A stretch of 64,000 nt of DNA from Candidatus Parcubacteria bacterium (GTDB lineage: Bacteria > Patescibacteriota > Saccharimonadia > UBA4664 > JBIOIQ01). This document shows, piece after piece, positions 1-25,912 of the stretch. The notes below the pieces were generated by a model. That model was not told the DNA's origin. It was given only the letters and a program-made list of their open reading frames with translations, and did no database searches. Where the stretch lies: contig OY970378.1 of the NCBI GenBank assembly GCA_963718875.1, positions 4,396 to 68,395 on the forward strand. The letters run 5' to 3'. The stretch's first letter is position 1, and each line of letters starts with the position of its first letter. The translations under genes and the position numbers were made by a program.

Positions 1-3000
1 GTGCGATTACTGTGGACATTAAAAGTTGGGCACTGGGTGTACGGCCATAAACCCTGTAGGAAATGGCCCCGGTAACGGCTGTCCAGCTTAGGTCGACTGA
101 ACCAGCACCTCCCCCGCCAGCAATAGAACAGCTGGCTTCGGCACCGGCCGTGGTTGTGCCTACGCCGTCGGAGGCGCCAATTTTATAGGCGTAGGTGCCA
201 TCGGCTAGGTTACCACCGCTGGTATTACATATTAGGGTTGGGGCAGCTGGCGCACCAGTTTCAATGGCGGCGGCATTGCCGGCTCCCAGAGTTAAGGCTT
301 GCTGAGGGCTGGATGTGCCAATGCCGATACGCCCGTTAAGAGTATCTGCTACGAATAAGCTGCTCGTACCGGTGGCATTTTGGATTTCGAAGGCGTTAGT
401 AGAGTTAACAGAGTTTTGGAATGATACCGGGGAGTTAATAACCCCGTTAAGTGAAATCGTACCAGGACCGTATGGCCTCACTCCGGCACCGGCGTCTATC
501 TGAACCCCATCGAGATAGATTGTCCTGGCAGCGGCTGTCGTCTGGCGGAAGTACAGGTATGGCGTACCAGAAGTAGCTGTCGTTGACATGGTACAGGCAT
601 AACGGGTCCATCCTGTCGTGGGAACAGTTGGCATTGGTTGGACACAATCAACCTCGGTAGCTCCGTCAGCGGCATAACCGAAAACGTAGTTTACTGCGCC
701 GGACTGATTTTTTAAAAAGGCGCTGAATGTGTATGTACCAGGAGTTAGGGTTATGTTTTGTTTTACCCCTTGACTATTGACAGCTGTAGTGGTCAACTGC
801 AAAGCCGCGTTACCGATGTATTGTTGGGTTGTGACGCGAGCAACCGTTGTTTCGGTGCCAATTTTTTTAAGCCAAGCGGACATATCGGTACCTTCAAAGC
901 TGGGGTTTGTTATCGTGTTGGTGTCGGTGGTATCAATGTTGATAGATTGAGCACCAATAGAGTTTGCTACCTGAAAAGCAGTAGTTGAGTTAGTAAACGT
1001 TTGCAGATTGAGCCCGGCATTATTTAGCACCGTAGCTGTAGCTCCGGCTTGTAATGTAATCGTGGTACCAGAGTGGGAGTTAGCAGCCGCGCCACCGGTA
1101 CCACCTATTTTAATGGTATTGGCAGAGTTGTTTGGAGTAGCAATGTTGACAGCATTCGTCCCCGTAGAAGTACCGACATTTGCGGTTTGTGCCGCTGTGC
1201 CTGTGCCAAGGTTAATTGTTGTTGCATTGGTACCAACCGTAACAGTACCAGAACCAACGGTGTCGAGGGTGAGAGTACCGGTACCAGATGTTTGGACCGT
1301 CAAATTCTGGTTGGTACCGCCCACTTGCCAAATGGAGGTAGCATTAGCAGTTATAGCAAGACCTGTGGCAGCGGGAGCAGCTAAGGTTGGTGTGACAAAC
1401 GACGTATCGGCAGTGCCGGTACCGGAGATATGGAAGTTACTTGATGCTTGCAAGCCACTTTGGTTAAAGATGTAGTTGGTGGAGCCAGCTGGGAGATCGG
1501 CGGCCAGAATGGCGCTGGAGACAAAGTTAGTGCCATTGCCGCGGAGGTAGTTGCCTGAGGCGGCAGCACCAGCAATCTGGTAGCCGGTTGAAACGTTGAG
1601 GACACCAGCAGCGGTTAGCGACGCTGACTGCGTGAAGGCCTGGTTATCGGCGGTAGCAGTAGGGGCATTTCCAAACAGGAAGCCACCTGCTAGGTTGCTT
1701 TTTAGGATAGAGCCGGCAATGCCACGAGTAAGGTATGTGTTGATGTTAGTACCCGCTTCGGCATTAAAGGCCAGGAATGGCGCACCGTCGTTAGATTGGG
1801 CTCCAATCGTGCTTCTGTATCCCGCCGTATTAGTGTGACCGAATTCTATGCTGTTGCCATTGGAGATGGCAGCTATGAGAGCGTTGGACACCGGAGTGGT
1901 GGCGCCAACTCTAACGTTACCGTTCCCGAGAACGGTTAAACGCTCGCCACCGGTTAAGGTGTAGGTTAGAGGGCTGGCGGTTGTTGAAAAAGCAACGGTG
2001 ACAGTTAGACTAGTGTTGCTGGGGATTGTAGCGATGGTGCGAACAGTTTCGCCTTGAACCGTAATAGTATCCCCGACTTTAAATGTGTTTAAAAACTCCG
2101 TATTTGTGCCGGTAAGGGTAATTGTAGCGTTTGTAGCAACCGTTCCCGGGCCGGCAGTGGGAGTTGCGACCTGAAAAATACCATTTGGGGTAGTTGTACC
2201 AATGCCAACGTTACCGCTATCGTGAGCAGTCAAAACCAAGTTGCCAGCAGCGCTAGTATAGAGTTGGCTTGCCTGATACTGGTCGGTCATATTGGTGGCG
2301 TTAAAGTTGTTGCCAACAAACAGCGGACCGTGGTTAATGCGCTTTAAGGTAATGTGGTCCATTTGGGTAGTGGCGCCAGTGGCGCCGTAGTTGATTAACC
2401 CCAGCACCCGAACGTACCTAGTATTTACTGGGAAGTTACCGGCTACGGTGCCTTCACCTGTGGTGGTAGCGCTAAGTTTGTGCCAGTTACCGTCGGCTGG
2501 TAAAACGTAACCCGAAGCAGCAAAGTAACAGTACGTTCCGCAGGGAGCCGTTGTAATGGCAGTCTTAGCAGCATTGTAAGCAATGTAGCCGAAGTACATT
2601 ACCCCTGGTGTACCGCCAGCAACTGTCTTTTTAAAGTACCCTTCAAGCTGCAGCACGTCTCTAGTAGGATCGACCGGGATGTAGTCATTACTGAGGACTG
2701 TCGCACTTTGCGTAGTTATTTCGGCCGCTTGGTCGCCAGAATAGCCTCCTGTGACGGAGGAGTTAATACCGCTCCACCCGTATGTCCCCTGCTCAAAGTC
2801 ACCATTTACCAGCAAATTGTTGGTAGCGGCATCGGCCAACAGGTAGCCGTTTTGGCTAGCTAAACCACCTGCCAATGAGAAGTTTTGACCAGTGGCTACA
2901 ACCGTGTCTTGGTTGAGGTTAATGACGCTGGCGTTGGTGGTGCCGATGTTGAGGGCAACGTTTGAGGCCGTATCGAGCAGCGGAGCTTGCAAAGCGGTGC

Positions 3001-6000
3001 TGGCGGTGTAGGTTGTACCGCCTGTCAGGGTGCCGCTAGTGGTTATGCCGGTGCTGGAAACACCAAAGTAGGTTGATCCTCCACCATTACTTTGGACCTC
3101 AAGTAGCCTTGCTCCAATTGGACTGGCGTTGTCCTGGACGGTAAGGGCACCGCGGGTTGCATCAACCACTATCTCGACAGCTGTGGGGGAGTTAGTATAG
3201 CCGGCTTGGAGGGTCGAGCCAGAACCGGTACCGGCACAGCTGCTCCAAATTGGGGCGGCGGAGTTTTGCCCAATCAAACATTGGCCGGTTGTACCTTGAG
3301 CCGTGACACCAAGCCCGCTGGTGGCGTTTCCATAAATGACGCCGTATTGAGTAAACGTGGTCTGGCCTGTGCCTCCATACCCAACGGCAATTGTGTTGCC
3401 GTTGTAGGTGACGTTTTGCAGCAAACCGGCGTTGGTAAGACGGGTGGTGCCTGCTGTGTTGATGTTGCCTGCTTGAACATTAAGGTTTCCAGTATTAACC
3501 ACTGTGCCATTAGTAGTGGAAACCGCCAAAAGATCGGTGCCGTTGTTTTGGACGGCAAACTTACTGGTAGAACCAGTGGCGATATTGACGGTAAAGTTGG
3601 AATCGGTGGTTTCATTGGTGAGAGTAACTGCTAAGTCACGGCCGGCAGTGTAGCCAGCGCTTGAGAGTGTATTGCCATTATCGTAGGCGGCCTGAAGCGT
3701 TGATCCGGATCCTGCACCGGAACAAGAGCCCCAAACTGGATTGCCGGCAGTTGATACCAGACATAGTCCGGCACTACCGGCCGCGGCCGTCATGCCTACT
3801 GCCGAGGTACCATTACCATACAAAATCCCATTTGCCGTAAGAGTAGCACGCCCGGTCCCACCTTGAGCCACATTAACGGCCGTAAAGCCGGTAGTAAGGG
3901 AGCCAGAGCTAAGCGCGCCCACTTGAGCAATGTTGGAGTAACTGACCCCCGTAGAAAAGCCGGCATTTTGGATTGTGCCGCTGCCGTTAATAATGGGCGT
4001 GGCGCCGGCCACCAAAATGGAGTTGTAGCCGGTTCCAACCGTTAAAGCGTTAAAGACGTTATTGGTGACGGTAGTGACGTTGGGTAGGTTTAAAGCATTG
4101 AGTATATTGGCGTTGGTGTTGGCGTTGGCTCCGCCCACAGGAGTAACAGACAGGCCATTGACGGTAGTAACCGTGGCGCTGGCATTGGTGTTGGTGACTG
4201 CTATATTGGCAGAGCTTGAGTTATTGGCTCCGGATGCCGAAACCGAAAAGTAGGTGTTCGTACCGGCGTTATTTTGGACTTCTAGCAAGGGGCTTGAGGT
4301 AATGGGAGTGCCATTGTCGCGAATTGTTAATGCTTTGTTGGTGTTGTCTAAGACAATCTCATTAACACCAGAGTTGGTGTAGGCACTTTGCAGCGTGTTT
4401 CCCGAACCGCTGCCGGAGCAAGCCTGCCAAGTTGGGGCAGCTGAGTTATTGCCCATAAGACATTGGCCAGTATTACCCACAGCGCTGACTTGCAAGGTGC
4501 TGGAGCCATTGCCCAGGAGTACCCCATACTGAGTAAACGTAGCGGCGCCAGTACCACCGTTTGTAACTCCAAGGGTTCCAGTAACAGCGGCTGATTGGGA
4601 GATATCAATAGACCCAAAAGCCGGTGCTCCCCCGACGCTGGGAACACGAAAGACCTGGTTGGCCGTACCGGCAGCTGTTACATTAAGCGCCGAGGCGTTA
4701 TTACCCAACAGTACTCCATTGAGTGTAAAGGTAGCCGCGCCCGTGCCTCCCCTAGCTACCCCCAAGGTACCAGCGGTAAGAATATTGGTATTGGCAGTGA
4801 CTGAGTTGGTGTTGTCGAGCGAAACGTTTTGCAGAATCCCAGTACTGCCAAGACGAATAGTGCCTCCGGTGAGAAGATTTCCATTAAGATTTAGCTCGGG
4901 TAGCGTCATCTCTTTGGTTACGTATATATCATCCCATTTATGAACTACGCCAGTGGTGCCTGAGCCTGTACGTAAGAAGATACGTAGAAAGGCGGCATCT
5001 GCTGGTGCGGTGGCGTTACCAGAAATTCTGGTCCATGTATCGGCGGTGGTTGAGCCAAACCCGGGATAGGTATTTGGGGTAATGGCTGAATCGGTACCAT
5101 TTTTTTGTTTCCAGTTGAACCTTAGTCCCCCTTGACCTGCTGAGGTGATAGATTTTATCCAGGCTTCGCCATACCATATTTCCCCGCCTTGGGTTGGAAT
5201 ATCAATTGAATGTTCGTAGTAAAAGTTGCCGGCAGTTGAAGTAGAGGTAACGGCGAAGTTACCGGTTCGGGTATCTGTAGACTCAAGTGCATAAGAGGCA
5301 CTATTTACCCATCCTTCGTCCTCGTTTCCAGTTTCAAAGCCTGGGTTATCGATGTAGTTATCGTAAGTTCCAACCCCTGTATTCATTATCTGAACTTGGC
5401 CACCTTGTAAGGTAATACCGGCTGACCCAGCGTCAATATTAACGGCCGTCGCCCCGGTAGTATTGCCTAACGTAATTGTTTTGGCGTTAGCACTCGTGCC
5501 AATATTGAGAGCGCCGACGGTGCCGGAGTCGACTGTCAATATTGTGCCAGCTCCGGAAGCGAGCGTTACGGCCCCGGTGCCTGTGATATTGGTACCAACT
5601 CCGGTAATACTCCCGGCGTTAGTAATACCGGTGGAGTTAACGTCGATTCCACCAGCCGATACGGTGAGGCCACCAGTATTAACTACCGTTCCGCCAGCCG
5701 TTGTAACCCGCAAAAGATCGGTGCCATTGTTTTGGACGGCAAATTTGCCGGTAGAGCTAGTGGCAATATTTACTAAAAAGTTAGAGTCAGTAGCGGTATT
5801 AACCAATGTAATGCTAACGTCCTTAGCATCGGTAGTCGCAATAGTATTGCCGTTATCGTAAGCTGCTTGCAAAGTTGAGCCAGATCCAACTCCAGAGCAG
5901 GTTTGAAATGTCGGAGCAAAGCCGACCCCATTTGAGACTAAACATTGGCCGTCTGTTCCGACAGTCGTTGTTGCAAGGGTTGTAGAGTTACTAGCATAAG

Positions 6001-7441
6001 CCACCCCATTGACGGCAAAGCCACTCCCAAGAGTAAGAGTGCCAGAGTTGTCGGGCAGGGTCATGATTCTGGTTCCACTAGTGGAGGCCCCTGTAAAGCG
6101 GAAGTTGTTAGTGCCGGGGGTCCCGGACGTACCGGAAATAAACAGCTCGCCAAATGGTAAAGTAGCCGAACCTATATTAACGGCGCCGGCCGTGCCCGGT
6201 AATAGCGAGGTATTAATAGCTACGCTAGCTAGGTTAGAAAGGGCGGTGTTGGCTCCCCCGCCGCCGGCCCCAGCACAAGAGCCAAAAGCCAGGGTCCCGG
6301 CGTTGTCGGTGGTGGTAACACATTGACCCGTGCTACCTACTGCAGTAGGTAGCGTTAGGTTAAAAGTACTGGCGGTGGCACCGCTTTGGAGCGTAACCGT
6401 GTTGGAGTTGGCGCCGTTAAAAAACCTGACGGAACCGAGTCTTCCAGCGCTGGAAGCACCGAGGGTTAAGGAGGCAGAGGTAGGAATGGTAACACCGATG
6501 GCGCCGTGACCAATGTTGATGGCGGACGCATTGGTGGTACCAATGTTTATTACACCGGTGGTTCCAGTAGCAGTACCGGAGTCGACCGTAATATTGCCAG
6601 AATTTGAAGTTGTGCCACTAGCATTGCCGCTTTGTAGCGTCAGGACGTTGGAATGGGTGCTGGCGGCGTTGGTAGGAGCGGTTTGCAAAACGCCATTGAT
6701 AGAGATATTTCCAGTGCTGCCGTCAACGTTTAAAGCCGTAATGGTGCCACCGGCGTTTTGGATCCTAAAAGCGGTAGCGCTAGAGTTTTGGAATAGATTG
6801 GTACCACTAAAGGTTTGGTTGGCGGCTAGTTGGCCAAACTGGCTAGCGGTAAGCCCGCCGAGCTGACCCGCGTTTTGGGCATACGGGGAGGCTGTAAAGC
6901 GGATCATGGGTAGCATTTCCCCGTCCGGCGAACAGTTGGCAAACACGTTGGTGGCGCCACAATTGGTGGTGTTGCCCAAGTTGATCGATAGCCAAATGGT
7001 GTCGTTATTCCAAATATTGGTTGGTAGCGGGTTGCCGCCTTGGGCACCAAGGTTTACTTGAAAAATACCGCTACTTACGGAAATGGAGGTGGAGTTGTTG
7101 ACCAAGTGATCTTCGGTAAAAACTAAAGTTCCACCGGGGTTGCCAGCACTGGTTCCGGCTCCATCGGTGTAGAGCTTAAACTGAACATTATAGTTGCCGT
7201 CGGTAATATTGGTGCCATTAACATTGACTAGCTTGCCCTGAAAGTTAACTTGGGAATTAATGCCGACCGCAGCATTGGCTTGCGGCAAACTCCAAGACAC
7301 AAGAAACAAGTTACAAACAATAGCCAATATCCAAGCACCAAGTGCCCAATGTTTGTGAGTTGTGTGTTGTGTGTTGTGTGTTGTGTGGCGATTGTGTCTT
7401 GCTGGTTTCTTACCAAAAAACTTAGTTTTTCGAGTACGCAA
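1..7441 (-). CDS. giant repetitive secreted surface protein (N-terminal >2480 aa; C-terminus lies beyond window start). Thr/Gly/Asn/Ser/Ala-rich with internal ~180-aa repeat modules containing paired Cys
   Basis: Minus-strand frame (codon low coordinate = 2 mod 3) stays open from a TTG at 7441 (or GTG 7498) to position 1. Hand translation at 7100-7440 and 2940-3000 gives plausible protein. N-terminus reads KKPARHNRHTTHNTQHTTHKHWALGAWILAIVCNLFLVSWSLPQANA|AV, a signal peptide with AXA site. Plus-strand ORFs in this span are V/P/A-rich antisense artefacts. Internal nucleotide repeats, e.g. 3531-3590 vs 5711-5770. Confidence 0.6.
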   Translation of the reverse strand, partial: MRTRKTKFFGKKPARHNRHTTHNTQHTTHKHWALGAWILAIVCNLFLVSWSLPQANAAVGINSQVNFQGKLVNVNGTNITDGNYNVQFKLYTDGAGTSAGNPGGTLVFTEDHLVNNSTSISVSSGIFQVNLGAQGGNPLPTNIWNNDTIWLSINLGNTTNCGATNVFANCSPDGEMLPMIRFTASPYAQNAGQLGGLTASQFGQLAANQTFSGTNLFQNSSATAFRIQNAGGTITALNVDGSTGNISINGVLQTAPTNAASTHSNVLTLQSGNASGTTSNSGNITVDSGTATGTTGVINIGTTNASAINIGHGAIGVTIPTSASLTLGASSAGRLGSVRFFNGANSNTVTLQSGATASTFNLTLPTAVGSTGQCVTTTDNAGTLAFGSCAGAGGGGANTALSNLASVAINTSLLPGTAGAVNIGSATLPFGELFISGTSGTPGTNNFRFTGASTSGTRIMTLPDNSGTLTLGSGFAVNGVAYASNSTTLATTTVGTDGQCLVSNGVGFAPTFQTCSGVGSGSTLQAAYDNGNTIATTDAKDVSITLVNTATDSNFLVNIATSSTGKFAVQNNGTDLLRVTTAGGTVVNTGGLTVSAGGIDVNSTGITNAGSITGVGTNITGTGAVTLASGAGTILTVDSGTVGALNIGTSANAKTITLGNTTGATAVNIDAGSAGITLQGGQVQIMNTGVGTYDNYIDNPGFETGNEDEGWVNSASYALESTDTRTGNFAVTSTSTAGNFYYEHSIDIPTQGGEIWYGEAWIKSITSAGQGGLRFNWKQKNGTDSAITPNTYPGFGSTTADTWTRISGNATAPADAAFLRIFLRTGSGTTGVVHKWDDIYVTKEMTLPELNLNGNLLTGGTIRLGSTGILQNVSLDNTNSVTANTNILTAGTLGVARGGTGAATFTLNGVLLGNNASALNVTAAGTANQVFRVPSVGGAPAFGSIDISQSAAVTGTLGVTNGGTGAATFTQYGVLLGNGSSTLQVSAVGNTGQCLMGNNSAAPTWQACSGSGSGNTLQSAYTNSGVNEIVLDNTNKALTIRDNGTPITSSPLLEVQNNAGTNTYFSVSASGANNSSSANIAVTNTNASATVTTVNGLSVTPVGGANANTNANILNALNLPNVTTVTNNVFNALTVGTGYNSILVAGATPIINGSGTIQNAGFSTGVSYSNIAQVGALSSGSLTTGFTAVNVAQGGTGRATLTANGILYGNGTSAVGMTAAAGSAGLCLVSTAGNPVWGSCSGAGSGSTLQAAYDNGNTLSSAGYTAGRDLAVTLTNETTDSNFTVNIATGSTSKFAVQNNGTDLLAVSTTNGTVVNTGNLNVQAGNINTAGTTRLTNAGLLQNVTYNGNTIAVGYGGTGQTTFTQYGVIYGNATSGLGVTAQGTTGQCLIGQNSAAPIWSSCAGTGSGSTLQAGYTNSPTAVEIVVDATRGALTVQDNASPIGARLLEVQSNGGGSTYFGVSSTGITTSGTLTGGTTYTASTALQAPLLDTASNVALNIGTTNASVINLNQDTVVATGQNFSLAGGLASQNGYLLADAATNNLLVNGDFEQGTYGWSGINSSVTGGYSGDQAAEITTQSATVLSNDYIPVDPTRDVLQLEGYFKKTVAGGTPGVMYFGYIAYNAAKTAITTAPCGTYCYFAASGYVLPADGNWHKLSATTTGEGTVAGNFPVNTRYVRVLGLINYGATGATTQMDHITLKRINHGPLFVGNNFNATNMTDQYQASQLYTSAAGNLVLTAHDSGNVGIGTTTPNGIFQVATPTAGPGTVATNATITLTGTNTEFLNTFKVGDTITVQGETVRTIATIPSNTSLTVTVAFSTTASPLTYTLTGGERLTVLGNGNVRVGATTPVSNALIAAISNGNSIEFGHTNTAGYRSTIGAQSNDGAPFLAFNAEAGTNINTYLTRGIAGSILKSNLAGGFLFGNAPTATADNQAFTQSASLTAAGVLNVSTGYQIAGAAASGNYLRGNGTNFVSSAILAADLPAGSTNYIFNQSGLQASSNFHISGTGTADTSFVTPTLAAPAATGLAITANATSIWQVGGTNQNLTVQTSGTGTLTLDTVGSGTVTVGTNATTINLGTGTAAQTANVGTSTGTNAVNIATPNNSANTIKIGGTGGAAANSHSGTTITLQAGATATVLNNAGLNLQTFTNSTTAFQVANSIGAQSINIDTTDTNTITNPSFEGTDMSAWLKKIGTETTVARVTTQQYIGNAALQLTTTAVNSQGVKQNITLTPGTYTFSAFLKNQSGAVNYVFGYAADGATEVDCVQPMPTVPTTGWTRYACTMSTTATSGTPYLYFRQTTAAARTIYLDGVQIDAGAGVRPYGPGTISLNGVINSPVSFQNSVNSTNAFEIQNATGTSSLFVADTLNGRIGIGTSSPQQALTLGAGNAAAIETGAPAAPTLICNTSGGNLADGTYAYKIGASDGVGTTTAGAEASCSIAGGGGAGSVDLSWTAVTGAISYRVYGRTPSAQLLMSTVIA
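7355..7385. repeat. heptanucleotide repeat (CACACAA)x3 plus one imperfect unit on the coding strand, inside the 5' end (n-region of the signal peptide) of the giant gene
   Basis: Plus strand reads gtgtgttgtgtgttgtgtgttgtgtgg. Encodes HNTQHTTHNTQ-like residues. Confidence 0.8.
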
Positions 7442-7605
7442 AAGCAGTGTGGCTTGTATTTGAAGCGATAGAGGTACGAGTAAAAATACCCATATCACGC
7501 TCTGTAACTTCACTCTCACAAGCACCACACGTTACAGGTGTGATTATATCAAAATGGTTATGCTAATGCAAGTCCTCTGAGTACAATCGGTAAATTGAAA
7601 AGCGA

Positions 7606-7634
7606 TTGACATAGTCACCTTGACGTGCTATGGT
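7606..7634 (+). promoter_or_regulatory. sigma70-like promoter candidate (TTGACA-17 bp-TATGGT)
   Basis: ttgaca at 7606-7611, 17-bp spacer, tatggt at 7629-7634. No annotated downstream plus-strand gene except a 48-codon ORF. Confidence 0.3.
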
Positions 7635-7720
7635 ATATAGGTTTTTGGGCTGATTATTCGACAATTTTTCTTGTAGCTTGATGCGCCAGCACGGCGCATC
7701 CCGATCGAAGGGATTACAGT

Positions 7721-7867
7721 ATGTTCGCCCCAATCTTTCTCATCTTTCTTCTGACAGGCTGCGTGTTATGTATAGTGGCCATGGCCCGAAAGAATCACCG
7801 CCCCGACCCTATCCAGCCTCTCGCTCTGAGCGGTCAAGTCCTAGTAAACGAGTATTGCCCTGATTAG
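7721..7867 (+). CDS. small hydrophobic peptide (48 aa) with lipobox-like LTGC; alternatively an untranslated small RNA
   Basis: ATG 7721 preceded by aaggga 8 nt upstream. Translation MFAPIFLIFLLTGCVLCIVAMARKNHRPDPIQPLALSGQVLVNEYCPD. Lies between promoter 7606 and terminator 7908. Confidence 0.25.
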   Translation: MFAPIFLIFLLTGCVLCIVAMARKNHRPDPIQPLALSGQVLVNEYCPD

Positions 7868-7907
7868 AGCCTTGCCCACACGAAGAACAGCGGATCCACT
7901 CAACTCG

Positions 7908-7944
7908 GCCCCGAGGCTACCAAGCATCGGGGCTGCATTTTTAT
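7908..7944 (+). terminator. rho-independent terminator (GC hairpin gccccga...tcggggc followed by tgcatttttattt)
   Basis: Inverted repeat 7908-7933 followed by a T-tract. An A-tract upstream means it may also serve the convergent minus gene ending at 7945. Confidence 0.5.
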
Positions 7945-8889
7945 TTAATCGCTCTTTTGATGCTTTTGCCTTAATTGTCTTTTGTAAATAAATACCCCCA
8001 AAGATGTAACAACAGTAAGACCTAATATAATCGCAGCAAGTAAAATAAGGGCTCCTCTTGGAATGTAGTAGAGGCTTGTCTTATAGGTAGTAAAGTTATC
8101 TCGGCCATCATAACGATACTGAACGACTAGCTGGTATTTACCAGGAGCGGATATGCGCCGAGTCGTCATTAGGGGAACAGTAAAACGGCGAAAAGAATCT
8201 GGCAGAATCCGCGATGACTCCTCATTAATGGCGGCCCGAGCCACCTCGCGACCACGCGGATCAAGTAAACGAATAACTCCTCGAGGAACGACATCTATAT
8301 TGCCCTTATTATGAAACCGCGCTTTCAAAGACAACGTTTGCCACCAGTCGGTGGCGGGCTGAACGCTATCTAGCTTGAGGTCATATTTTTCGCCGCCGAT
8401 TTTATTTACAAACAGCAAGGTGGAGAGCACGGATTGGACAATTACCTTGTCTTTGGAGGCAGCTGCTGTAGGCTGTTCCCCTAGCAAGATGGCACCGTAA
8501 TGTCCTCCGGGAGTCAAAGACGGCTGATTATTAATGCTAGCCCGCATGGTTTTAACTTCGCCGGGTCGTAAAGTCACAGTACTATCACTTAGCGTGAGCC
8601 AATTTACTAACCCATGGGGGCGAATTTGACCAGGTGTGCTAGCCAAGAAAGCTACCCCTCCTGATTCGTCTAGACTACCGAAGTCGCTGGTAGATAAAGT
8701 AAAAGTTTTAGTTTGCGACGGGTCATTGTTGGTTACAGAATAGCTAAAATCGGCTGTCTGCTGGTCTTTGGTTATGGTTATGTTTTGAAATGGAGGTGAA
8801 ATTGTCACTCCCTCGGCGGCAAAAGCATTGTTTTTAACTACGCAAAGTGCAATGACAACAGTGAAGGCTACAAACAACCATCGTCGCAT
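7945..8889 (-). CDS. cell-surface protein with signal peptide, beta-rich ectodomain, C-terminal TM helix + basic tail (DUF916/DUF3324-like; diverged paralog of the next two genes)
   Basis: ORF 7945..8949; likely start MRRWLFVAFTVVIALCVV at 8889. C-terminus ...LILLAAIILGLTVVTSLGVFIYKRQLRQKHQKSD. Confidence 0.45.
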   Translation of the reverse strand: MRRWLFVAFTVVIALCVVKNNAFAAEGVTISPPFQNITITKDQQTADFSYSVTNNDPSQTKTFTLSTSDFGSLDESGGVAFLASTPGQIRPHGLVNWLTLSDSTVTLRPGEVKTMRASINNQPSLTPGGHYGAILLGEQPTAAASKDKVIVQSVLSTLLFVNKIGGEKYDLKLDSVQPATDWWQTLSLKARFHNKGNIDVVPRGVIRLLDPRGREVARAAINEESSRILPDSFRRFTVPLMTTRRISAPGKYQLVVQYRYDGRDNFTTYKTSLYYIPRGALILLAAIILGLTVVTSLGVFIYKRQLRQKHQKSD

Positions 8890-8890
8890 T

Positions 8891-9916
8891 TTATCGCCTC
8901 CGGGGTAACAACTTACGGATAATTTTTTTAACAGTCGACTGCAACCCAATGATCATAAAAATACTTACGAATACAAGAACTCCAATCACCCGCCACGGCA
9001 CCACCCAAAAGCTAACGCTGCCGGTAAGAGGGATGTCTCTGGTGCCGTCATTGTAGGCCATGGTAAAGCTGGCGGTGTACTTACCAAAACGGAGCTTGGG
9101 AACTTGGGTAAAGTCCCACTTAAGGGTCATTTCCGGTTGGTTGTTTTTAATGATGGGTTTACCATCTTGGAGCTTAGGGACATAGACAGGAAAGCCATCT
9201 TTCCAGGCGGCAGTGTAAATACGGTTGGAGTTGGGCAGGATATTGCCCCCCGAATCATTAACGTCAATGGTGGAAACAGGTTTCTTGCCTTTGGTAATGA
9301 AAATGTTACCTTTGGGAACTACGTGAATATTACCAGCATTACGGAGCTTAATGTTAAAAGTAGCCGGTAGGAACTCGTAGAACTTGTGGTCGGCAGTAAA
9401 GCTGACAGGGGTAAGTTGGCGCTTAGTGTTAGGAGAGTTAACTGCTAGCAACACTAGGGTGGCACTGGAACCGGCCACTACAGCTTCGGCGCCGGTAGGC
9501 TTAATGTCTTCCGCTCGGGAAAAAGTAGCAGCCAGGTAGTAGCCAAAGGCAGCTGTTTTAGGAATAGCGATGGTCATCTTGATGGTTTTCCACTCTCCTG
9601 GTGGAGCGTCAAACACGCTGGGGCTAAATTTAACCCAGTCAAAATAGCTGTCCGCAGCCTGGCGGTCACTTAAAACTGGTGAGCCGTCCTCACCCTGGGC
9701 GCCAAACTTAATTAAGCCAACTTTTAGACGTTCGGGAGCAGTGCCATTGTTTTTAACCCGCAAGTCGGCAGTGACAGTAGTGCCAGGATTGGCGGTTAGG
9801 TTAATGGGGAGAGGTGAAGTAGCGATGGAGAGTGGTTGTCCGGCGGCGGTGAGCGGGAGAGGGATAAAAAGGAGGGACAGGGCAATTAAAAAAAGCGAGT
9901 GTGCCAGCTTCGTCAT
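8891..9916 (-). CDS. cell-surface protein (DUF916/DUF3324-like), copy 2 of tandem duplicate
   Basis: Likely start ATG 9916 (MTKLAHSLFLIALSLLFIPLPLTAAGQ), overlapping the upstream stop in ATGA. ~330 aa identical to the 9913..10971 product except signal peptide and C-terminal anchor. C-terminal TM + KKIIRKLLPRRR. Confidence 0.5.
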   Translation of the reverse strand: MTKLAHSLFLIALSLLFIPLPLTAAGQPLSIATSPLPINLTANPGTTVTADLRVKNNGTAPERLKVGLIKFGAQGEDGSPVLSDRQAADSYFDWVKFSPSVFDAPPGEWKTIKMTIAIPKTAAFGYYLAATFSRAEDIKPTGAEAVVAGSSATLVLLAVNSPNTKRQLTPVSFTADHKFYEFLPATFNIKLRNAGNIHVVPKGNIFITKGKKPVSTIDVNDSGGNILPNSNRIYTAAWKDGFPVYVPKLQDGKPIIKNNQPEMTLKWDFTQVPKLRFGKYTASFTMAYNDGTRDIPLTGSVSFWVVPWRVIGVLVFVSIFMIIGLQSTVKKIIRKLLPRRR

Positions 9917-10917
9917 CGCTGTCTCTTTGCGGCCCGTTTCATGCGTCGTTTCATCAGCCAATAAACCAGGATAGCTGGCACAACCGGAACGGCTATACCG
10001 AAGAGAATCACCCGCCACGGCACTACCCAAAAGCTAACGCTGCCGGTAAGAGGGATGTCTCTGGTGCCGTCATTGTAGGCCATGGTAAAGCTGGCGGTGT
10101 ACTTACCAAAACGGAGCTTGGGAACTTGGGTAAAGTCCCACTTAAGGGTCATTTCCGGTTGGTTGTTTTTAATGATGGGTTTACCATCTTGGAGCTTAGG
10201 GACATAGACAGGAAAGCCATCTTTCCAGGCGGCAGTGTAAATACGGTTGGAGTTGGGCAGGATATTGCCCCCCGAATCATTAACGTCAATGGTGGAAACA
10301 GGTTTCTTGCCTTTGGTAATGAAAATGTTACCTTTGGGAACTACGTGAATATTACCAGCATTACGGAGCTTAATGTTAAAAGTAGCCGGTAGGAACTCGT
10401 AGAACTTGTGGTCGGCAGTAAAGCTGACAGGGGTAAGTTGGCGCTTAGTGTTAGGAGAGTTAACTGCTAGCAACACTAGGGTGGCACTGGAACCGGCCAC
10501 TACAGCTTCGGCGCCGGTAGGCTTAATGTCTTCCGCTCGGGAAAAAGTAGCAGCCAGGTAGTAGCCAAAGGCAGCTGTTTTAGGAATAGCGATGGTCATC
10601 TTGATGGTTTTCCACTCTCCTGGTGGAGCGTCAAACACGCTGGGGCTAAATTTAACCCAGTCAAAATAGCTGTCCGCAGCCTGGCGGTCACTTAAAACTG
10701 GTGAGCCGTCCTCACCCTGGGCGCCAAACTTAATTAAGCCAACTTTTAGACGTTCGGGAGCAGTGCCATTGTTTTTAACCCGCAAGTCGGCAGTGACAGT
10801 AGTGCCAGGATTGGCGGTTAGGTTAATGGGGAGAGGTGAAGTAGCGATGGAGAGTGGTTGTCCGGCGGCGGTGAGCGGGAGAGGGATAAAAAGGAGGGAC
10901 AGGAATATGGCTAAACT
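8988..10917. repeat. tandem direct duplication, two ~1020-bp units (~910 bp >99% identical) spanning the two DUF916-like genes
   Basis: 8991-9897 matches 10011-10917 with a single mismatch noted at the 5' edge. Identical antisense ORFs appear twice in the ORF track. Confidence 0.9.
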
Positions 10918-10971
10918 AAAACGGGTAAAATTAAAAGCACTCCACTTCATGTTGTAAGTATACCCTAGCAT
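9913..10971 (-). CDS. cell-surface protein (DUF916/DUF3324-like), copy 1 of tandem duplicate
   Basis: Signal peptide MKWSAFNFTRFSLAIFLSLLFIPLPLTAAGQ (start 10971 or 10950). C-terminal TM + KRRMKRAAKRQR. Confidence 0.5.
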   Translation of the reverse strand: MLGYTYNMKWSAFNFTRFSLAIFLSLLFIPLPLTAAGQPLSIATSPLPINLTANPGTTVTADLRVKNNGTAPERLKVGLIKFGAQGEDGSPVLSDRQAADSYFDWVKFSPSVFDAPPGEWKTIKMTIAIPKTAAFGYYLAATFSRAEDIKPTGAEAVVAGSSATLVLLAVNSPNTKRQLTPVSFTADHKFYEFLPATFNIKLRNAGNIHVVPKGNIFITKGKKPVSTIDVNDSGGNILPNSNRIYTAAWKDGFPVYVPKLQDGKPIIKNNQPEMTLKWDFTQVPKLRFGKYTASFTMAYNDGTRDIPLTGSVSFWVVPWRVILFGIAVPVVPAILVYWLMKRRMKRAAKRQR

Positions 10972-10991
10972 AAGAGTGTTAGGAACAGGGT

Positions 10992-12209
10992 TTAGAATCT
11001 ACCGGCGGCAACAATTGTTAGAGTGTCGGCGTAGTCGGTGGCGGCAGGAGTAACGCCGGAAACAGTGGCACGCTCAACGAAGTTAATGACGTCACCAGCT
11101 GAAGTTCCGGTTGAGGAGGCGAATGGGGAATAAAAGCTGGGGTTAATGGGGCCCATTTTACAGGTACCGTTACCGGAGCAGGTGGCAAATCCACCCGTAG
11201 AGTCGTAGGCGGCATTGGCACTGGGGGTTCCAGCTTGGCCACCACCACCGGCGGTAACAGAGGTAACAGCAAAACCGTAGTCTTCAGCACCGGCCGTATT
11301 AGTGTGAGCAGCAGTACCAATTGAGTTAGTGGTGTTGTTAGATATTTTGTAGTTAGCAGCAGTTGGTGACATGAGGGCTCCATGTAAGTTGCCCGAGGAA
11401 GTATCGGAAACGGTTTTGGCGTTTGCACTTAAATCTTTAACATACGCTACCCAACCGCCGTTGGCATTGGTGGTGACGGAAATGTTTAAGGCCGCCGTTG
11501 AGACTGTGCTAGAGGGGTCTAGGTTGGTACTAAATGCTTGTGAATTACCACTTAGAGTAAAGATGAAAGTTGGCGGAACAGTGGCTGTAACATTAACTTG
11601 ATCGGCGGTGATGCTTGAACCAATGATGGAAACAGCATATGCGCTGGTGGCGGCGTCGGCAGTACCTGGGTAAGCGCCTGTACGAGTTGTAACTGTGCCA
11701 GCCAAGTTATTGCCCGAAGTAGCAGGAGTCCTAAGCGCGGTAGTGGAGTTGGTCCAGTTAAAGCAGTAAACGGCCGCCGAAGCAAGGTTGCCACTAACAA
11801 AATCGACGGTTTGAGCAGCAGGTGCGTTGGTAGGCTGAGCGATGCCGGTCCATGCTACCGACCCCGCAGGCCACGATGTGTTAGTTGTACTATTAACAGC
11901 CCAATCTGCTTGGGTGGCGCTAAGAACAAATCCAGTAGGGAATACTACTCGAGCGGTAGTTTCGGTGCCAGCCACATTGGCGGCAGACATGTTGGCGCAA
12001 ACCGTACCCGAAGCAAAGACGCTACCGCCGTTGGAGGCAGCAACGCGATCAAGTCGTACTGTGATTTCGTTAAACTCAGGTGCCGCCATAGCCGTACCCG
12101 TCATAAACGGAACAAAAGCTTGGAATAGTAAAGCAACGATACTTGCAATACGCAGGCGTTGAAGGAAGTTTCTATTTAGAAACTGGTTTCTCATCAATTT
12201 ATAACCCAC
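10992..12209 (-). CDS. secreted protein, paralog A (pilin/fibre-subunit-like; ends ...ATDYADTLTIVAAGRF)
   Basis: Signal peptide (RLRIASIVALLFQAFVPFMTGTAMAAPE). 3' half nucleotide-identical to the paralog at 12343..13527. Confidence 0.55.
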   Translation of the reverse strand: MGYKLMRNQFLNRNFLQRLRIASIVALLFQAFVPFMTGTAMAAPEFNEITVRLDRVAASNGGSVFASGTVCANMSAANVAGTETTARVVFPTGFVLSATQADWAVNSTTNTSWPAGSVAWTGIAQPTNAPAAQTVDFVSGNLASAAVYCFNWTNSTTALRTPATSGNNLAGTVTTRTGAYPGTADAATSAYAVSIIGSSITADQVNVTATVPPTFIFTLSGNSQAFSTNLDPSSTVSTAALNISVTTNANGGWVAYVKDLSANAKTVSDTSSGNLHGALMSPTAANYKISNNTTNSIGTAAHTNTAGAEDYGFAVTSVTAGGGGQAGTPSANAAYDSTGGFATCSGNGTCKMGPINPSFYSPFASSTGTSAGDVINFVERATVSGVTPAATDYADTLTIVAAGRF

Positions 12210-12288
12210 TTGCTAAAACTCTAATGCTTAAATCATAATCATGAATTTACTCATTGTCAACCTCTCTTCAGATACCTGCGTTCCATAA

Positions 12289-12320
12289 CAAAAAGACCCT
12301 CGTATGAAGGTCTTTTTGTT
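12289..12320. terminator. bidirectional rho-independent terminator (aaaaagacc-loop-ggtctttttgtt)
   Basis: Perfect hairpin flanked by an A-tract and a T-tract, immediately downstream of the minus gene ending at 12343. Confidence 0.55.
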
Positions 12321-12342
12321 ATAACTAAAGTAAAAGTATCTT

Positions 12343-13527
12343 TTAGAACCTGCCAGCGGCAACAATAGTTAGAGTGTCGGCGTAGTCGGTGGCGGCAGGA
12401 GTAATACCAGCAATGTTGGCACGCTCTACAAAGCTAATGACGTCACCAGCTGAAGTTCCGGTTGAGGAGGCAAATGGGGAATAAAAGCTGGGGTTAATGG
12501 GGCCCATTTTACAGGTACCGTTACCGGAGCAGGTGGCAAATCCACCCGTAGAGTCGTAGGCGGCATTGGCACTGGGGGTTCCAGCTTGGCCACCACCACC
12601 GGCGGTAACAGAGGTAACAGCAAAACCGTAGTCTTCAGCACCGGCCGTATTAGTGTGAGCAGCAGTACCAATTGAGTTAGTGGTGTTGTTAGATATTTTG
12701 TAGTTAGCAGCAGTTGGTGACATGAGGGCTCCATGTAAGTTGCCCGAGGAAGTATCGGAAACGGTTTTGGCATTGGCACTTAAATCCTTGACGTAAGCCA
12801 CCCAACCAGCCGAGGCGTTGGTGGTGACAGAAATGTTTAAGGCCGCCGTTGAGACAGTGGTAGCAGGATCTAGGTTGGTACTAAATGGTTGGGAGTTACC
12901 ACTTAGAGTAAAGATGAAGGTTGGCGGAACAGTGGCTGTAACATTAACTTGATCGCCTGTTCCACCGGAGCCTATTACAGAAGTGGCGTAGTTACTAGAG
13001 GCGGCGTCGGCAGTACCTGGGTAAGCGCCTGTACGGGTTGTAACTGAGCCGGTCAGGTTGTTCCCCGCACTGGCTGGCGTACTAAGGGCTGTGGTTGTGT
13101 TGGTCCAGTTAAAACAATAAATATTTGCCGAGGCAAGGTCACCGCTTACAAAGTCGACGGTTTGACCGGTGGGCGCATTAGTAGGTAGAGAGATGCCGGT
13201 CCATGATACTGCCCCCACAGGCCACGAGGTGTTAGATGTACTGTTAACCGTCCAGTTAGCAGGTGTAGTGCTGACAGTAAAGCCCGTAGGAAACACTACC
13301 CTGACGGTGGTTTCGGTGCCAGCTACATTGCCCGCGGTTGCGTTGACGCAAACGGTTCCGGAAGTAAAGACCGTACCCGCGGAAAGACGATCAAAACGAA
13401 CTAAAGCATAAGTGTACGGAGCGGCGGCGGCAGTGCCTACCATAAATGGAACAAAAGCTTGGAATAGTAAAGCTACGATGCTGGCTATTCGAAAGCGCTG
13501 AAATATTTTATGATTGTGTATTTTCAT
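12343..13527 (-). CDS. secreted protein, paralog B (same family; identical C-terminal ~150 aa ending TLTIVAAGRF)
   Basis: Signal peptide MKIHNHKIFQRFRIASIVALLFQAFVPFMVGTAAAAPY. N-terminal half diverged from paralog A, C-terminal half identical. Confidence 0.55.
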   Translation of the reverse strand: MKIHNHKIFQRFRIASIVALLFQAFVPFMVGTAAAAPYTYALVRFDRLSAGTVFTSGTVCVNATAGNVAGTETTVRVVFPTGFTVSTTPANWTVNSTSNTSWPVGAVSWTGISLPTNAPTGQTVDFVSGDLASANIYCFNWTNTTTALSTPASAGNNLTGSVTTRTGAYPGTADAASSNYATSVIGSGGTGDQVNVTATVPPTFIFTLSGNSQPFSTNLDPATTVSTAALNISVTTNASAGWVAYVKDLSANAKTVSDTSSGNLHGALMSPTAANYKISNNTTNSIGTAAHTNTAGAEDYGFAVTSVTAGGGGQAGTPSANAAYDSTGGFATCSGNGTCKMGPINPSFYSPFASSTGTSAGDVISFVERANIAGITPAATDYADTLTIVAAGRF

Positions 13528-13622
13528 GGCTGTTGTTGAGTTTCCCCTTTTTTTATTTTTGTTTTTTTATATGAATACATTAAGAGTTTGGATCAAAGTT
13601 CTTATGCTGTCAAGCTTTTTTT

Positions 13623-13754
13623 CTGACCCACGTGCACTTTGCGAATTTTGATGTCATGTTGAGCTTGTCGAAACATCTATCCAGATAGATCTCTTCCGTC
13701 GACTGACGGATCGAGATGACAATAGGAAGAGAACTAAAAGTGCACGTGGGTCAG
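13623..13754. repeat. MITE-like element: 18-bp perfect terminal inverted repeats (ctgacccacgtgcacttt / aaagtgcacgtgggtcag) enclosing a palindromic core shared with 25913-26000
   Basis: Inverted-repeat arms at 13623-13640 and 13737-13754. Internal atgtcatgttgagc...gtcgaaacatctatccagatagatctc...cgagatgacaat. Confidence 0.6.
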
Positions 13755-13774
13755 CTTTTTTTGGCCTTTATTGG

Positions 13775-14809
13775 CTAAAACGATCCCGAGGCGACTAGTG
13801 TTAGAGTATCTGTGTAGTCGCTGGCTGACGGGGTTGTGGCGCTAGCTTTAGCCTTAATGACAATCTGAGCCGAACCGCCCGTTATTGGGGCAGTGCTATT
13901 AAAAATAGTTTGAAAAGCTAACGCCAGCCCTCCAACGTTATTTGTGGAGCCATTAAATGGGCTTGCTACCGTAAATGGACCTCCGCTTGATTGAGTAGCA
14001 CTAGCTCCTTGTGCCCCATAGCCCGATGAGGCTGCACTAAGATCGGCGGTCGAAGAAACAATTAGTGGCCCAACCACATTACTTTTAAGCCCGGCATTTT
14101 TTGAGGCCACATAAACATTTCCCCCGGATTCGGCATTGGTATCAAGTGTGATACTGCCGTTGGGGGTAGCGGTAATAACGCTCCCGGCCGAAAGCGTACC
14201 TAGGTCTACCGTGCTGGGAGAGACAGAAAAAGATAATTGAGCAGTGGACGTTGATGCAGCCGCAGTAGGCCCGTAAGCTGACTCTGTAAATCTACCCTGA
14301 ATTGCCCTGGCTTTAACGGTGTAAGTAGTGTTGGGAGTTAAGCCTATTACCGTTGTTCCCGAGCCGCTACCCCATGACGAGTAGGTTCGGTAGTCTGTTG
14401 GGTAAACCAAGGTCGTGCCAACCGTATTGTCGCTTTTTACGTAATTAATGTTACTAGCAAATGCGTCGGTGCTAATCGCTACTGCGTACAATGCATCCGT
14501 AGGATTGCCTTGGGTACCAATAGTAATAAGTAGCTTATTATAGAAATTATTAACATTGGTAATGGTAATAGTGGGAACGTTGGAGTTTTGAGCATTATTA
14601 TTTCCGGATTGAACCGCCTTTGCAGTACCCGTAGACTGAGCGGTACTTTGTTCTCCGGCTGTGCCATTTACTCTATAAGTAGTCGAAGCCGAACTAGCTG
14701 TACCGCCAGTCCCTATGCTGTAATTATGCAGCTGATAGGTTGTGCTTGACGGCAATGCGGCTAACAGCATAACTGTACCGCCTAAAAAAGTACTAAACCA
14801 TCCACTCAT
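13775..14809 (-). CDS. secreted protein, paralog C (ends ...SDYTDTLTLVASGSF; same C-terminal strand motif)
   Basis: Signal peptide MSGWFSTFLGGTVMLLAALPSSTTYQ; Ser/Thr/Gly-rich; C-terminal motif shared with paralogs A and B. Confidence 0.5.
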   Translation of the reverse strand: MSGWFSTFLGGTVMLLAALPSSTTYQLHNYSIGTGGTASSASTTYRVNGTAGEQSTAQSTGTAKAVQSGNNNAQNSNVPTITITNVNNFYNKLLITIGTQGNPTDALYAVAISTDAFASNINYVKSDNTVGTTLVYPTDYRTYSSWGSGSGTTVIGLTPNTTYTVKARAIQGRFTESAYGPTAAASTSTAQLSFSVSPSTVDLGTLSAGSVITATPNGSITLDTNAESGGNVYVASKNAGLKSNVVGPLIVSSTADLSAASSGYGAQGASATQSSGGPFTVASPFNGSTNNVGGLALAFQTIFNSTAPITGGSAQIVIKAKASATTPSASDYTDTLTLVASGSF

Positions 14810-16283: not shown

Positions 16284-17252
16284 TTAAGTACCTAACGCTG
16301 GAGTTTGTGGTAGTCCTCGCTCCTCAGCTTTACGTCCTCGCCATTCACCCAACCAAAAGCTAACTACCATTAAAAGCAGAAGCGCCCAGATTGGCCAGGC
16401 CAAAAGCAACTGTCCCCCAGTAGGTCGGCTTGTAGTAAGCGCGGCTCCGACGTCGTTATTCACGATGGCGGCTAACTGTAACAGACCAGCTGTGCCAACC
16501 GAATCTACCGCTTTAATGGTTAAAACGTAACTGCCCTTATAACCGCCAGCTTTTTTGTATGTATGGGTGATGGTGAACTTGCCGGGAGTTGTGCGGGTGA
16601 AGAGATTGCTTGTTCCATCGCCCCAATCCACACTAACGGCATATGGGGCTTGACCGCCGAGTACTTCGACTTCCCAACTAACATTCTGACCAGGAACACT
16701 GCCTTTATAGATGCTGGGGGCTTTAATGATGACGTTGCCGTTTTGGCCATTAACCGAACCGTTAATGACATTAAGGGGGCTGGACGGTAAATCGTAGTAC
16801 GCAATCACTTCATTTGAATCTGGGCTTGATTGGTTGGCTTGATTTAGCATTTTTGCTACCAATTTGTTTTGCCCTATAAAAAGGTCGGCCTGCATGGCAA
16901 ATTGCCCCGTACGATCACAAATGACGGCCCCAGCAAGTACATCGTTTTTATAAACGTTGACCAGTAGCCCGCTTTGACAGGTACCCCTAATATTGATGGG
17001 GTTACTGGTGAAGCGCTGGCCATTTGCTGGGGCTGTAATAATAGGCCCATTTTTAGGGATAGCCCCCGGCACGACCGCCTGGACAGATATGGTACTAGTA
17101 ACAGGAGGAGGATCGTCAGCTTGGGCGAAAGCAGTAAGGCCAGCTAAGATGACTCCAGCAAGTAAAGTCACAAAAAGCAGCGATCCGTAAGAAGTGTGAT
17201 GGTGGGGTTGATAACGACCAGTGTGGCGATGGGGACTAAGCTTTGGTTTCAT
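16284..17252 (-). CDS. PKD-domain surface protein with signal peptide and C-terminal TM anchor
   Basis: PKD motif VSVDWGDGTS...ITHTY. N-terminal HHHTSY + hydrophobic segment. C-terminal LLLAWPIWALLLLMVVSFWLGEWRGRK. ATG at 17252 (the track's 17255 start is TTG). Paralog at 38021..38965. Confidence 0.65.
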   Translation of the reverse strand: MKPKLSPHRHTGRYQPHHHTSYGSLLFVTLLAGVILAGLTAFAQADDPPPVTSTISVQAVVPGAIPKNGPIITAPANGQRFTSNPINIRGTCQSGLLVNVYKNDVLAGAVICDRTGQFAMQADLFIGQNKLVAKMLNQANQSSPDSNEVIAYYDLPSSPLNVINGSVNGQNGNVIIKAPSIYKGSVPGQNVSWEVEVLGGQAPYAVSVDWGDGTSNLFTRTTPGKFTITHTYKKAGGYKGSYVLTIKAVDSVGTAGLLQLAAIVNNDVGAALTTSRPTGGQLLLAWPIWALLLLMVVSFWLGEWRGRKAEERGLPQTPALGT

Positions 17253-17257
17253 CAAGG

Positions 17258-25710: not shown

Positions 25711-25778
25711 CACATTTGCTATAGGTCTAAGTTAGACATGTTTAAAGCGCTTAAAAGCAGTCTATGTTAGACCTATAC
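25711..25778. repeat. palindromic intergenic repeat element, family A (tataggtctaa...ttagacctata); inverted copy at 39107-39176
   Basis: Reverse complement matches 39107-39176 nearly base for base. Confidence 0.8.
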
Positions 25779-25912
25779 AAGAATTGCAATGAGGGTGGTT
25801 GCTTGCAGATGTCGTTAAGAAGCGTCAAAACGCTTTTTACAAAACAAGTTGCCAGCTAGAAATAGGGTTATGCTTATATGTTGTATTACAAGACCTGAGT
25901 CTCAAAACCCCA

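Follow-up and report, generated by a model that had tools for sequence, protein, structure and literature searches.

Pam pili were described in 2026 and are thought to mediate host contact in episymbiotic bacteria of the Candidate Phyla Radiation (CPR); the pam neighbourhood of Candidatus Mycosynbacter amalyticus includes PamC and PamD, PapD/FimC-like putative chaperones which, unlike the classical ones, have a C-terminal transmembrane (TM) helix (Troman et al., bioRxiv 10.64898/2026.03.03.709456). PamD differs from PamC by an additional hairpin, the binding of pilins by PamC and PamD via donor-strand complementation is a prediction, and Saccharibacteria have no outer membrane (10.64898/2026.03.03.709456). 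The present analysis concerns a tandem gene pair, genes A and B, of a Saccharibacterium, located in a stretch of 64,000 nucleotides (nt), here called the window (NCBI GenBank assembly GCA_963718875.1, contig OY970378.1, positions 4,396 to 68,395 of the forward strand). Both genes encode a chaperone-like protein with the same body on different membrane anchors, and this pattern is very probably the outcome of recurrent gene conversion between ancient, anchor-distinct tandem paralogues, the bodies evolving in concert and the anchors persisting as separate orthologous lineages.

Concerted evolution of paralogues is known in bacteria from tufA/tufB. In CEA-family paired receptors (PMC2832619) and in TLR1/TLR6 (PMC2077338), one part of the genes is homogenised by interlocus conversion and another part stays distinct; in paired receptors this places the same ectodomain on different TM or cytoplasmic tails. 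The locus analysed here is similar, the anchor being the part kept distinct and orthologous across species; it differs in being a bacterial operon with overlapping genes and no signalling tails, and in that, for 13 independent genomes, a domain junction lies no more than 11 nt from the tract end. A further related system is WxLIP, a DUF916-DUF3324-TM protein of Firmicutes WxL clusters which is predicted to bind its partner by beta-strand insertion (Hassan et al., 2023, PMC10599100). The Pam preprint makes no mention of multiple copies, paralogues, gene conversion, anchor classes or WxL (10.64898/2026.03.03.709456), and a literature search on gene conversion in Saccharibacteria found nothing.

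The Gene Pair and Its Shared Core

Genes B and A are arranged head to tail on the minus strand and comprise the following features (Ig, immunoglobulin; aa, amino acids):

9913..10950, minus strand: gene B, an open reading frame (ORF) of 345 aa for a membrane-anchored, chaperone-like protein with two Ig-like domains and a P-type anchor
8891..9916, minus strand: gene A, an ORF of 341 aa with the ectodomain as in gene B and a G-type anchor
10006..10903, minus strand: repeat copy 1, the homogenised core of gene B, which starts midway along the signal peptide, includes both Ig-like domains and stops at the codons of ...PWRVI
8984..9881, minus strand: repeat copy 2, the homogenised core of gene A
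9882..10005, minus strand: the junction between the repeat copies, a unique 124 bp that takes in anchor B, the overlapping ATGA and the N-terminal portion of signal peptide A
9916..10011, minus strand: anchor B, a P-type TM helix and basic tail, VILFGIAVPVVPAILVYWLMKRRMKRAAKRQR
8894..8989, minus strand: anchor A, a G-type TM helix and basic tail, VIGVLVFVSIFMIIGLQSTVKKIIRKLLPRRR

Ungapped comparison of the window with itself at an offset of 1022 aligns 8984-9881 with 10006-10903 over 898 bp with one mismatch (99.9% identity), which is far beyond chance. The sole mismatch, C at 9002 versus T at 10024, is synonymous (GTG versus GTA, both Val). Past both limits of the repeat identity falls at once to the random level, and over their first 90 nt the anchors are 44% identical. 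At the protein level A and B agree in every residue (100% identity) from midway along the signal peptide (..LSLLFIPLPLTAAGQ..) to ...FWVVPWRVI, and their differences are limited to the N-terminal part of the signal peptide and to the TM helix with its basic tail, where unrelated segments follow the identical part (LFGIAVPVVPAILVYWLMKRRMKRAAKRQR in gene B and GVLVFVSIFMIIGLQSTVKKIIRKLLPRRR in gene A). The exact products of both genes are also called on one public contig of 1,189,924 bp. An earlier note on this DNA had described a repeat of about 910 bp with more than 99% identity at 8991-9897 and 10011-10917; the repeat is real, with limits that lie a few bases off and an offset of 1022 instead of 1020. 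The translations agree with its statement that the proteins differ only in the signal peptide and the C-terminal TM/basic tail, and the reported ATGA gene overlap is present at 9916-9913, the ATG of gene A occupying 9916-9914 and the TGA of gene B 9915-9913.

Anchors Are Orthologous Between Genomes

Related loci were collected by a profile scan of one genome per species (GTDB representatives), which gave 80 loci, the window's own genome not being among them. The proteins were split at the conserved TSPLP and PWR motifs, the anchor being the segment after PWR, and anchor classes were taken from hierarchical clustering of alignment scores (BLOSUM62), classification by regular expressions having been dropped as too crude.

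The P-type anchor, with the proline-containing consensus LILfAIAIPVVPAlLVYllMRRRmKR (..AxPxxPAxxVYxxM+RR..), is found in the upstream copy, and the G-type anchor, lIgggLvVliFVlIGLwST.rn.wRKlr (..GLW/K-S-T..), in almost all single-copy genes and in the downstream copy of most pairs; Y-type anchors (..IIYLVxSRRxYKK and ..NFALIxGLxxYVIRLRRRLK) are also present, and the combinations seen are P+G, P+Y, Y+G and P+Y+G. Anchor B has its best matches in the copy-1 anchors of other genomes (score 96 to locus L021) versus a score of 12 to its own neighbour, and anchor A clusters with copy-2 anchors and with those found in nearly all single-copy genomes. This holds across the 29 two-copy loci scored for anchors (28 relatives and the window), where the best match of each anchor in another genome scored 44-148 versus 1-47 to its own partner. 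Mean BLOSUM62 scores were 47 for type-1 against type-1 anchors, 35 for type-2 against type-2 and 19-20 for type-1 against type-2, and a G-like anchor was present in 47 of the 50 single-copy loci scored. On these sequence comparisons the P-then-G two-gene arrangement is old and widespread, and the suggestion that a very recent duplication generated the two genes is thus not backed.

Cores Are Homogenised Within Genomes

The cores behave in the opposite way to the anchors, the partner core being closer than the core of any other genome in 23 of 30 two-copy loci. Cores were 99.4-100% identical at the nucleotide level, synonymous sites included, in 13 loci (the window, L002, L003, L007, L011, L020, L021, L036, L044, L047, L058, L065, and L072). 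All 13 identical tracts stop, at the 3' end, between -1 and +11 nt of the PWR codon; at the 5' end their starts are scattered over 30 to 141 nt upstream of TSPLP, so that the tract begins anywhere from inside the signal peptide to a point covering nearly all of it. Because the 5' end wanders while the 3' end is fixed at the anchor junction, the anchor is the conserved difference between the proteins and the difference between their signal peptides is incidental: the two signal peptides in the window do differ in their N-terminal parts, as had been reported, but in some relatives the tract covers nearly the whole signal peptide.

Three sister species (L003, L007, and L011) separate the age of the pair from the age of the identity. 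Their cores are 80-81% identical at the nucleotide level between species and 99.9-100% within each genome, and their anchors show 69-76% (type 2) and 60-64% (type 1) nucleotide identity between species. With cores about 20% apart between and 0-0.1% within genomes, and with orthologous anchors, the pair therefore predates the speciations and the homogenisation came after them. In L006 a partial tract is present, the first 300 nt of the core being 100% identical and the remainder 48-72%, with a longest identical run of 309 nt versus at most 53 nt in codon shuffles. No signal of GC-biased gene conversion was detected, the excess of G+C at third codon positions being +0.063 in converted cores versus +0.062 in single-copy genes.

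The reading as recurrent gene conversion is supported by the orthology of the anchors across genomes, the homogenisation of the bodies within genomes, the partial tract of L006 and the three sister species with their own identical pairs; these comparative data favour the second of the two origins offered in the earlier note, ongoing gene conversion. The pattern is that by which concerted evolution is recognised, namely a greater likeness within than between genomes, an unconverted part that stays orthologous, and mosaic genes with partial tracts.

Copy Number Among Related Loci

Regarding copy number, 43 of the 80 related loci are single-copy with adequate flanks, 29 have two or three tandem copies and 8 are truncated and uncertain. 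The comparison with relatives for which the earlier note had called thus yielded one, two and three copies, and the description of the repeat as a substrate for copy-number variation fits the data. Three tandem copies with anchors P, Y and G and cores 99.4-99.8% identical were detected in L021 (5908-9088), where the third copy is interrupted by indels of 1-2 nt (frameshifts) and may be a pseudogene or reflect sequencing error. L047 has two copies versus one in L068, the cores being 81% identical and the G-type anchors almost alike; this difference is either a real change in copy number or a collapse in a short-read co-assembly. At least one single-copy locus, L028, comes from a metagenome-assembled genome (MAG) with an MFD-prefixed isolate name, a series which we take to be long-read. 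The window genome has two copies as assembled and may have more than two.

Protein Architecture, Fold and Family

An AlphaFold2 (AF2) model of the gene B product, built from a 37-sequence alignment, has a predicted local distance difference test score (pLDDT) of 88.3 and shows a helix for the signal peptide, then two beta-sandwich domains and a long C-terminal helix spanning residues 312-344. By inspection, the signal peptide consists of a hydrophobic helix at the N-terminus (model residues 6-20) with ..PLTAAGQ after it; the TM segment at the C-terminus is, in both genes, a hydrophobic stretch that coincides with the predicted helix and leads into a K/R-rich tail. The top Foldseek matches of the gene B model in the PDB were Enterococcus faecium WxLIP structures 9i1y and 9i25 (E-value 9e-10, TM-scores 0.34-0.44), followed by RbmA and then by the chaperone-usher chaperones CfaA, CsuC, YadV and CupB2 (E-values 1e-8 to 4e-7, with modest TM-scores of 0.31-0.55). 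No family above threshold was found for protein A or B, or for the neighbours scanned with them, in Pfam (E <= 0.1) or in NCBIfam (even at E <= 10), PapD-family Pfam domains had no match in the window proteins or in the 37 family members, and searches of PDB sequences with the family profile and with a pilin-like protein (see below) gave no match. All 884 homologues of the gene A and B proteins are in Saccharibacteria or Patescibacteria assemblies. An interpretation of the P-type anchor as a sortase/exosortase-type CTERM signal was rejected, as no NCBIfam sorting-domain match and no visible LPXTG or PEP motif were found.

The proteins resemble WxLIP in having a signal peptide, two Ig-like domains and a C-terminal TM helix at a similar length (337-365 aa versus 341-345 aa here), and WxLIP is their best PDB fold match, ahead of the classical pilus chaperones; binding of a partner by an inserted beta-strand is moreover the principle of pilus chaperones. 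They differ in that PF06030 (DUF916/WxLIP_PGBD) gave sub-threshold matches in 6 of 37 family members (best E-value 0.0035) and none for the window proteins, in that PF11797 (DUF3324) had no match among the 37 members, and in that the TM-scores to WxLIP are low; furthermore, no WxL-domain Pfam match was found among the neighbouring secreted proteins, and the phylum and the partner proteins are others. The designation DUF916-like therefore stands for fold and architecture and does not extend to family membership. A near-invariant ..DxYFDWVxF.. motif of the chaperone-like family loosely recalls the conserved ..YFDLK of WxLIP.

With the chaperone-usher chaperones (PapD, FimC, CsuC, CfaA, YadV, CupB2) the proteins have the two-domain Ig-like fold in common, and their genes lie beside those of subunits whose conserved C-terminal strand ends in an aromatic residue. 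Unlike those soluble chaperones, A and B are membrane-anchored and match no PapD-family Pfam domain, and no usher-like match was detected among the neighbours scanned (Pfam, NCBIfam). There is also a resemblance in architecture to PamC and PamD, in which a signal peptide, two beta-sandwich domains of PapD/FimC-like fold and a TM helix at the C-terminus are likewise combined. As in PamD compared with PamC, the larger form, represented by A and B, has an extra segment that is absent from a smaller paralogue encoded next to them.

The Surrounding Probable Pilus Operon

The neighbours of the gene pair are listed in the order of transcription, in which genes B and A follow the three pilin-like genes and precede the third paralogue:

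16284..17255, minus strand: PamR-like gene (RbmA-like pilus anchor; NCBIfam NF058578 PamR, 262.9 bits, E-value 2.6e-78, below the equivalog cut-off of 300)
between the PamR-like gene and the pilin-like genes, minus strand: gene of a 198-aa membrane protein
13775..14809, minus strand: third pilin-like gene, 344 aa, with the C-terminal motif ...DYTDTLTLVASGSF common to the pilin-like genes
12343..13527, minus strand: pilin-like gene 1, 394 aa, with an identical tract at 12473-12771
10992..12209, minus strand: pilin-like gene 2, 405 aa, which presumably encodes the client of the chaperone-like proteins, with an identical tract at 11122-11420
7945..8889, minus strand: third, distant paralogue, 314 aa, directly downstream of gene A, its product being called identically in the public contig
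2-7531, minus strand: giant ORF of more than 2,500 codons that runs off the window, with no Pfam match

The gene pair probably sits in a Pam-type (CPR) pilus operon; the locus is so placed because the PamR-like gene is present, 6 kb upstream of the pair. The N-terminus of the third pilin-like gene product has a weak match to PamT (NCBIfam NF058579, E-value 1.6e-07, well under the cut-off), and ATP synthase genes flank the pilus cluster. The operon resembles the pam neighbourhood in being Saccharibacterial and in combining a PamR-like gene, a weak PamT match, pilin-like genes and adjoining ATP synthase genes. The gene order here is unlike that suggested for M. amalyticus.

The three pilin-like genes have the C-terminal motif ..DYxDTLTxVAxGxF in common. 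The AF2 model of the product of pilin-like gene 1 (pLDDT 87.9) has two beta-sandwich domains, and all 107 of its 107 homologues are from CPR bacteria. The pilin-like proteins had no sequence or PDB match to PamA or PamB, and an assignment as PamA/PamB was not made, since the model matches only generic two-Ig adhesins in the PDB; as inferred from context and the two-domain model, they would be Pam-type pilins. Pilin-like genes 1 and 2 are about 65-93% identical except for an exact run of 299 nt (11122-11420 = 12473-12771) in the C-terminal domain, which by its identity pattern is a second, internal conversion tract in the same operon.

The third paralogue is related to A and B with an hhalign probability of 98.3% at 23% identity and has a similar architecture, except that an insertion of about 25 residues is missing from its domain 2. 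Nearly all related loci have a counterpart of it in the downstream position.

Other Repeats and Composition of the Window

At 17273-17535 a heptamer, AGCTTTG (read as CAAAGCT on the minus strand), is repeated 37.6 times with 100% matches. This perfect array lies in the leader of the pilus operon, preceded by a promoter-like TTGACA-16-CATAAT (minus strand, 17568-17541) and followed by the start of the PamR-like gene, and is a candidate for a hypermutable contingency element; heptamer arrays in the flanks of the 80 related loci were limited to one weak case (L052). A scan for promoters and terminators at 7-18 kb of the window gave no more sites than were found in shuffles. At the 5' end of the giant ORF a second heptamer repeat, (TTGTGTG)x5 at 7353-7387, could shift its frame or start. 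The pilus-operon end of the window (1-14000) has a G+C content of 0.475-0.53 versus about 0.39-0.47 elsewhere. Outside the operon, an element of about 89 nt occurs in three copies (26596-26684, 41856-41944, and 59701-59789) with an internal palindrome (..CTGTCATTCCCTATAGGAAGCCAAGCT..AGCTTGGCGCTCCTGATAGGGAATC..) and looks like a small repeat of the repetitive extragenic palindromic (REP) or miniature inverted-repeat transposable element (MITE) type, and a 90-nt inverted repeat (25711-25800 and 39086-39175) is 92% complementary with arms 13.3 kb apart.

Proposed Mechanism and Alternative Explanations

Under the proposed mechanism, both genes would encode Sec-exported proteins of two Ig-like domains built like PapD and WxLIP and tethered to the cytoplasmic membrane with a positive-inside tail. 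The ectodomain DNA would be overwritten repeatedly by RecA-type, non-reciprocal recombination between the two direct repeats, each conversion tract running until homology ends at the ectodomain/TM junction; longer tracts that overwrite an anchor are probably also removed by selection, given that the anchors are conserved. If the cores underwent unequal crossing-over, anchor B and signal peptide A would be lost and a single gene of the G type would remain, which fits the range of one to three copies and the predominance of the G type in single-copy genomes, a state that could also be ancestral. Regarding function, the proteins would most likely serve the neighbouring pilin-like subunits as membrane-tethered, donor-strand-complementing chaperones, the role that has been suggested for PamC and PamD; their client specificity would be identical, and the two anchors would give one chaperone body two different membrane contexts or partnerships.

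Near-identical tandem repeats of 0.9 kb are hard to assemble, and the earlier note had raised the possibility of a mis-assembly, in which one gene would have been expanded to two or a more diverged pair or larger array mis-resolved; the frameshifts in the third copy of L021, from a nanopore-type MAG, can be counted in its favour. Such an artefact is nevertheless highly unlikely, as the 124-bp junction with anchor B and the start of signal peptide A is unique and could not have been invented by an assembler, both ORFs are intact, both anchors have orthologues in other genomes, and the same structure is present in 12 other independent assemblies. In addition, a 1,674-nt Logan contig (run ERR12037361) that contains the third paralogue starts 143 nt upstream of the ATG of that paralogue, at window position 9032, which is 9002+30 and thus 30 nt past the sole base that distinguishes the cores. 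The Logan assembly graph was presumably built with k=31, and such a graph would branch exactly at 9032 if the reads contained two core continuations differing at 9002; the other end of the contig falls in the (TTGTGTG)x5 repeat. If the pair is real, a very recent tandem duplication in this genome, whose ends later diverged or were replaced, would need no gene conversion and would account for the near-perfect identity including synonymous sites, for the head-to-tail layout with its ATGA overlap and for the many single-copy relatives. Divergence after duplication, however, cannot give both unrelated ends (44% nucleotide identity) and a core with 1 difference in 898, and the recurrence of the P-then-G pair in distant genomes, with each anchor closest to its counterpart elsewhere, already contradicts such an origin, as do the three sister species about 20% diverged with an identical pair each and the partial tract in L006; there is accordingly very little probability left for it.

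Module shuffling, in which a lineage-specific recent duplication was followed by the gain of a P- or Y-type anchor cassette through recombination or horizontal transfer, would suit the existence of at least three or four anchor classes in different combinations (P+G, P+Y, Y+G, P+Y+G) and the shortness of the anchors, which could move. It is improbable in view of what it demands, namely that at least 13 lineages each gained such a cassette at an identical position; no anchor donor was seen elsewhere in the examined loci, the sister species have both anchors in common at species-level divergence, and both the partial 5' tract of L006 and the variability of the 5' ends look as if the body had been converted and not the tail replaced. 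A selected recombination switch is unlikely too, but should be considered: RecA-mediated deletion and re-expansion between the cores would toggle P+G against G-only, so that pilus assembly would vary in phase or through copy number. Deletion is efficient between direct repeats of 0.9 kb, the predicted product keeps the G-type anchor seen in 47 of 50 single-copy loci, close relatives such as L047 and L068 (cores 81% identical) differ in copy number, and the perfect 37-copy heptamer array in the operon leader indicates that the operon may be prone to contingency behaviour. Set against this, loss of the P-type anchor makes a deletion hard to reverse, G-only may just be the ancestral condition, and some single-copy loci may be assembly collapses.

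Recurrent gene conversion between old paralogues is thus the preferred reading, and several points weigh against it or against the function proposed with it. The anchors are short hydrophobic segments whose likeness across genomes is partly compositional, and in L003, L007 and L011 the type-1 nucleotide signal is weak (60-64% versus 47-62% for cross-type pairs). Most relatives are short-read MAGs, in which bubble popping by assemblers can inflate an identity of 97-99% to 100%, and a two-copy array can collapse into one chimeric gene; the predicted collapse product, signal peptide 1 followed by the core and a G-anchor, looks the same as the single-copy loci, some of which may therefore be artefacts. 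The copy number given for the window genome is that of the assembly. Regarding the pilus, the PamR-like match is under the NCBI equivalog cut-off (262.9 versus 300), no PDB match marks the neighbouring genes as Pam pilins, and the likeness of A and B, which match no NCBIfam model, to PamC and PamD (WP_260763277.1, WP_260763284.1) is one of architecture, fold matches and operon context. The evidence for the chaperone function consists of fold, architecture and operon context, and the role of the two anchors is inferred.

Implications

It is conceivable, if rather doubtful, that the anchor-distinct, body-identical proteins form a functional unit that replaces the usher, the P and G helices pairing mutually or with different partners (the Sec translocon, the PamR base). 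Two identical bodies would then stand side by side, one carrying the pilus base and the other the incoming subunit, and donor-strand exchange would take place at the membrane. Conversion would be favoured since both bodies stay matched to fast-evolving pilins, whose C-terminal domains are likewise being homogenised in the same operon. If this were true, the WxLIP/DUF916 proteins of Firmicutes and the Pam chaperones of CPR bacteria would represent one ancient class of membrane-tethered, strand-complementing chaperones of monoderm envelopes. Independently of the usher, the fold link with WxLIP/DUF916 suggests that there may be a wider class of membrane-tethered chaperones in single-membrane bacteria.

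Gene conversion with a protected divergent module is already known as a process, and the present locus is a clean, repeated and domain-limited bacterial case of the 'paired receptor' type. It is also prone to collapse, which is a warning for annotators and builders of MAGs. In many Saccharibacteria one chaperone-like body is thus maintained on two or three different, conserved anchors, recurrent conversion holding the bodies identical up to the anchor junction; this points to the anchors as the functionally distinct parts of a pilus machinery that has to work without an usher or an outer membrane.

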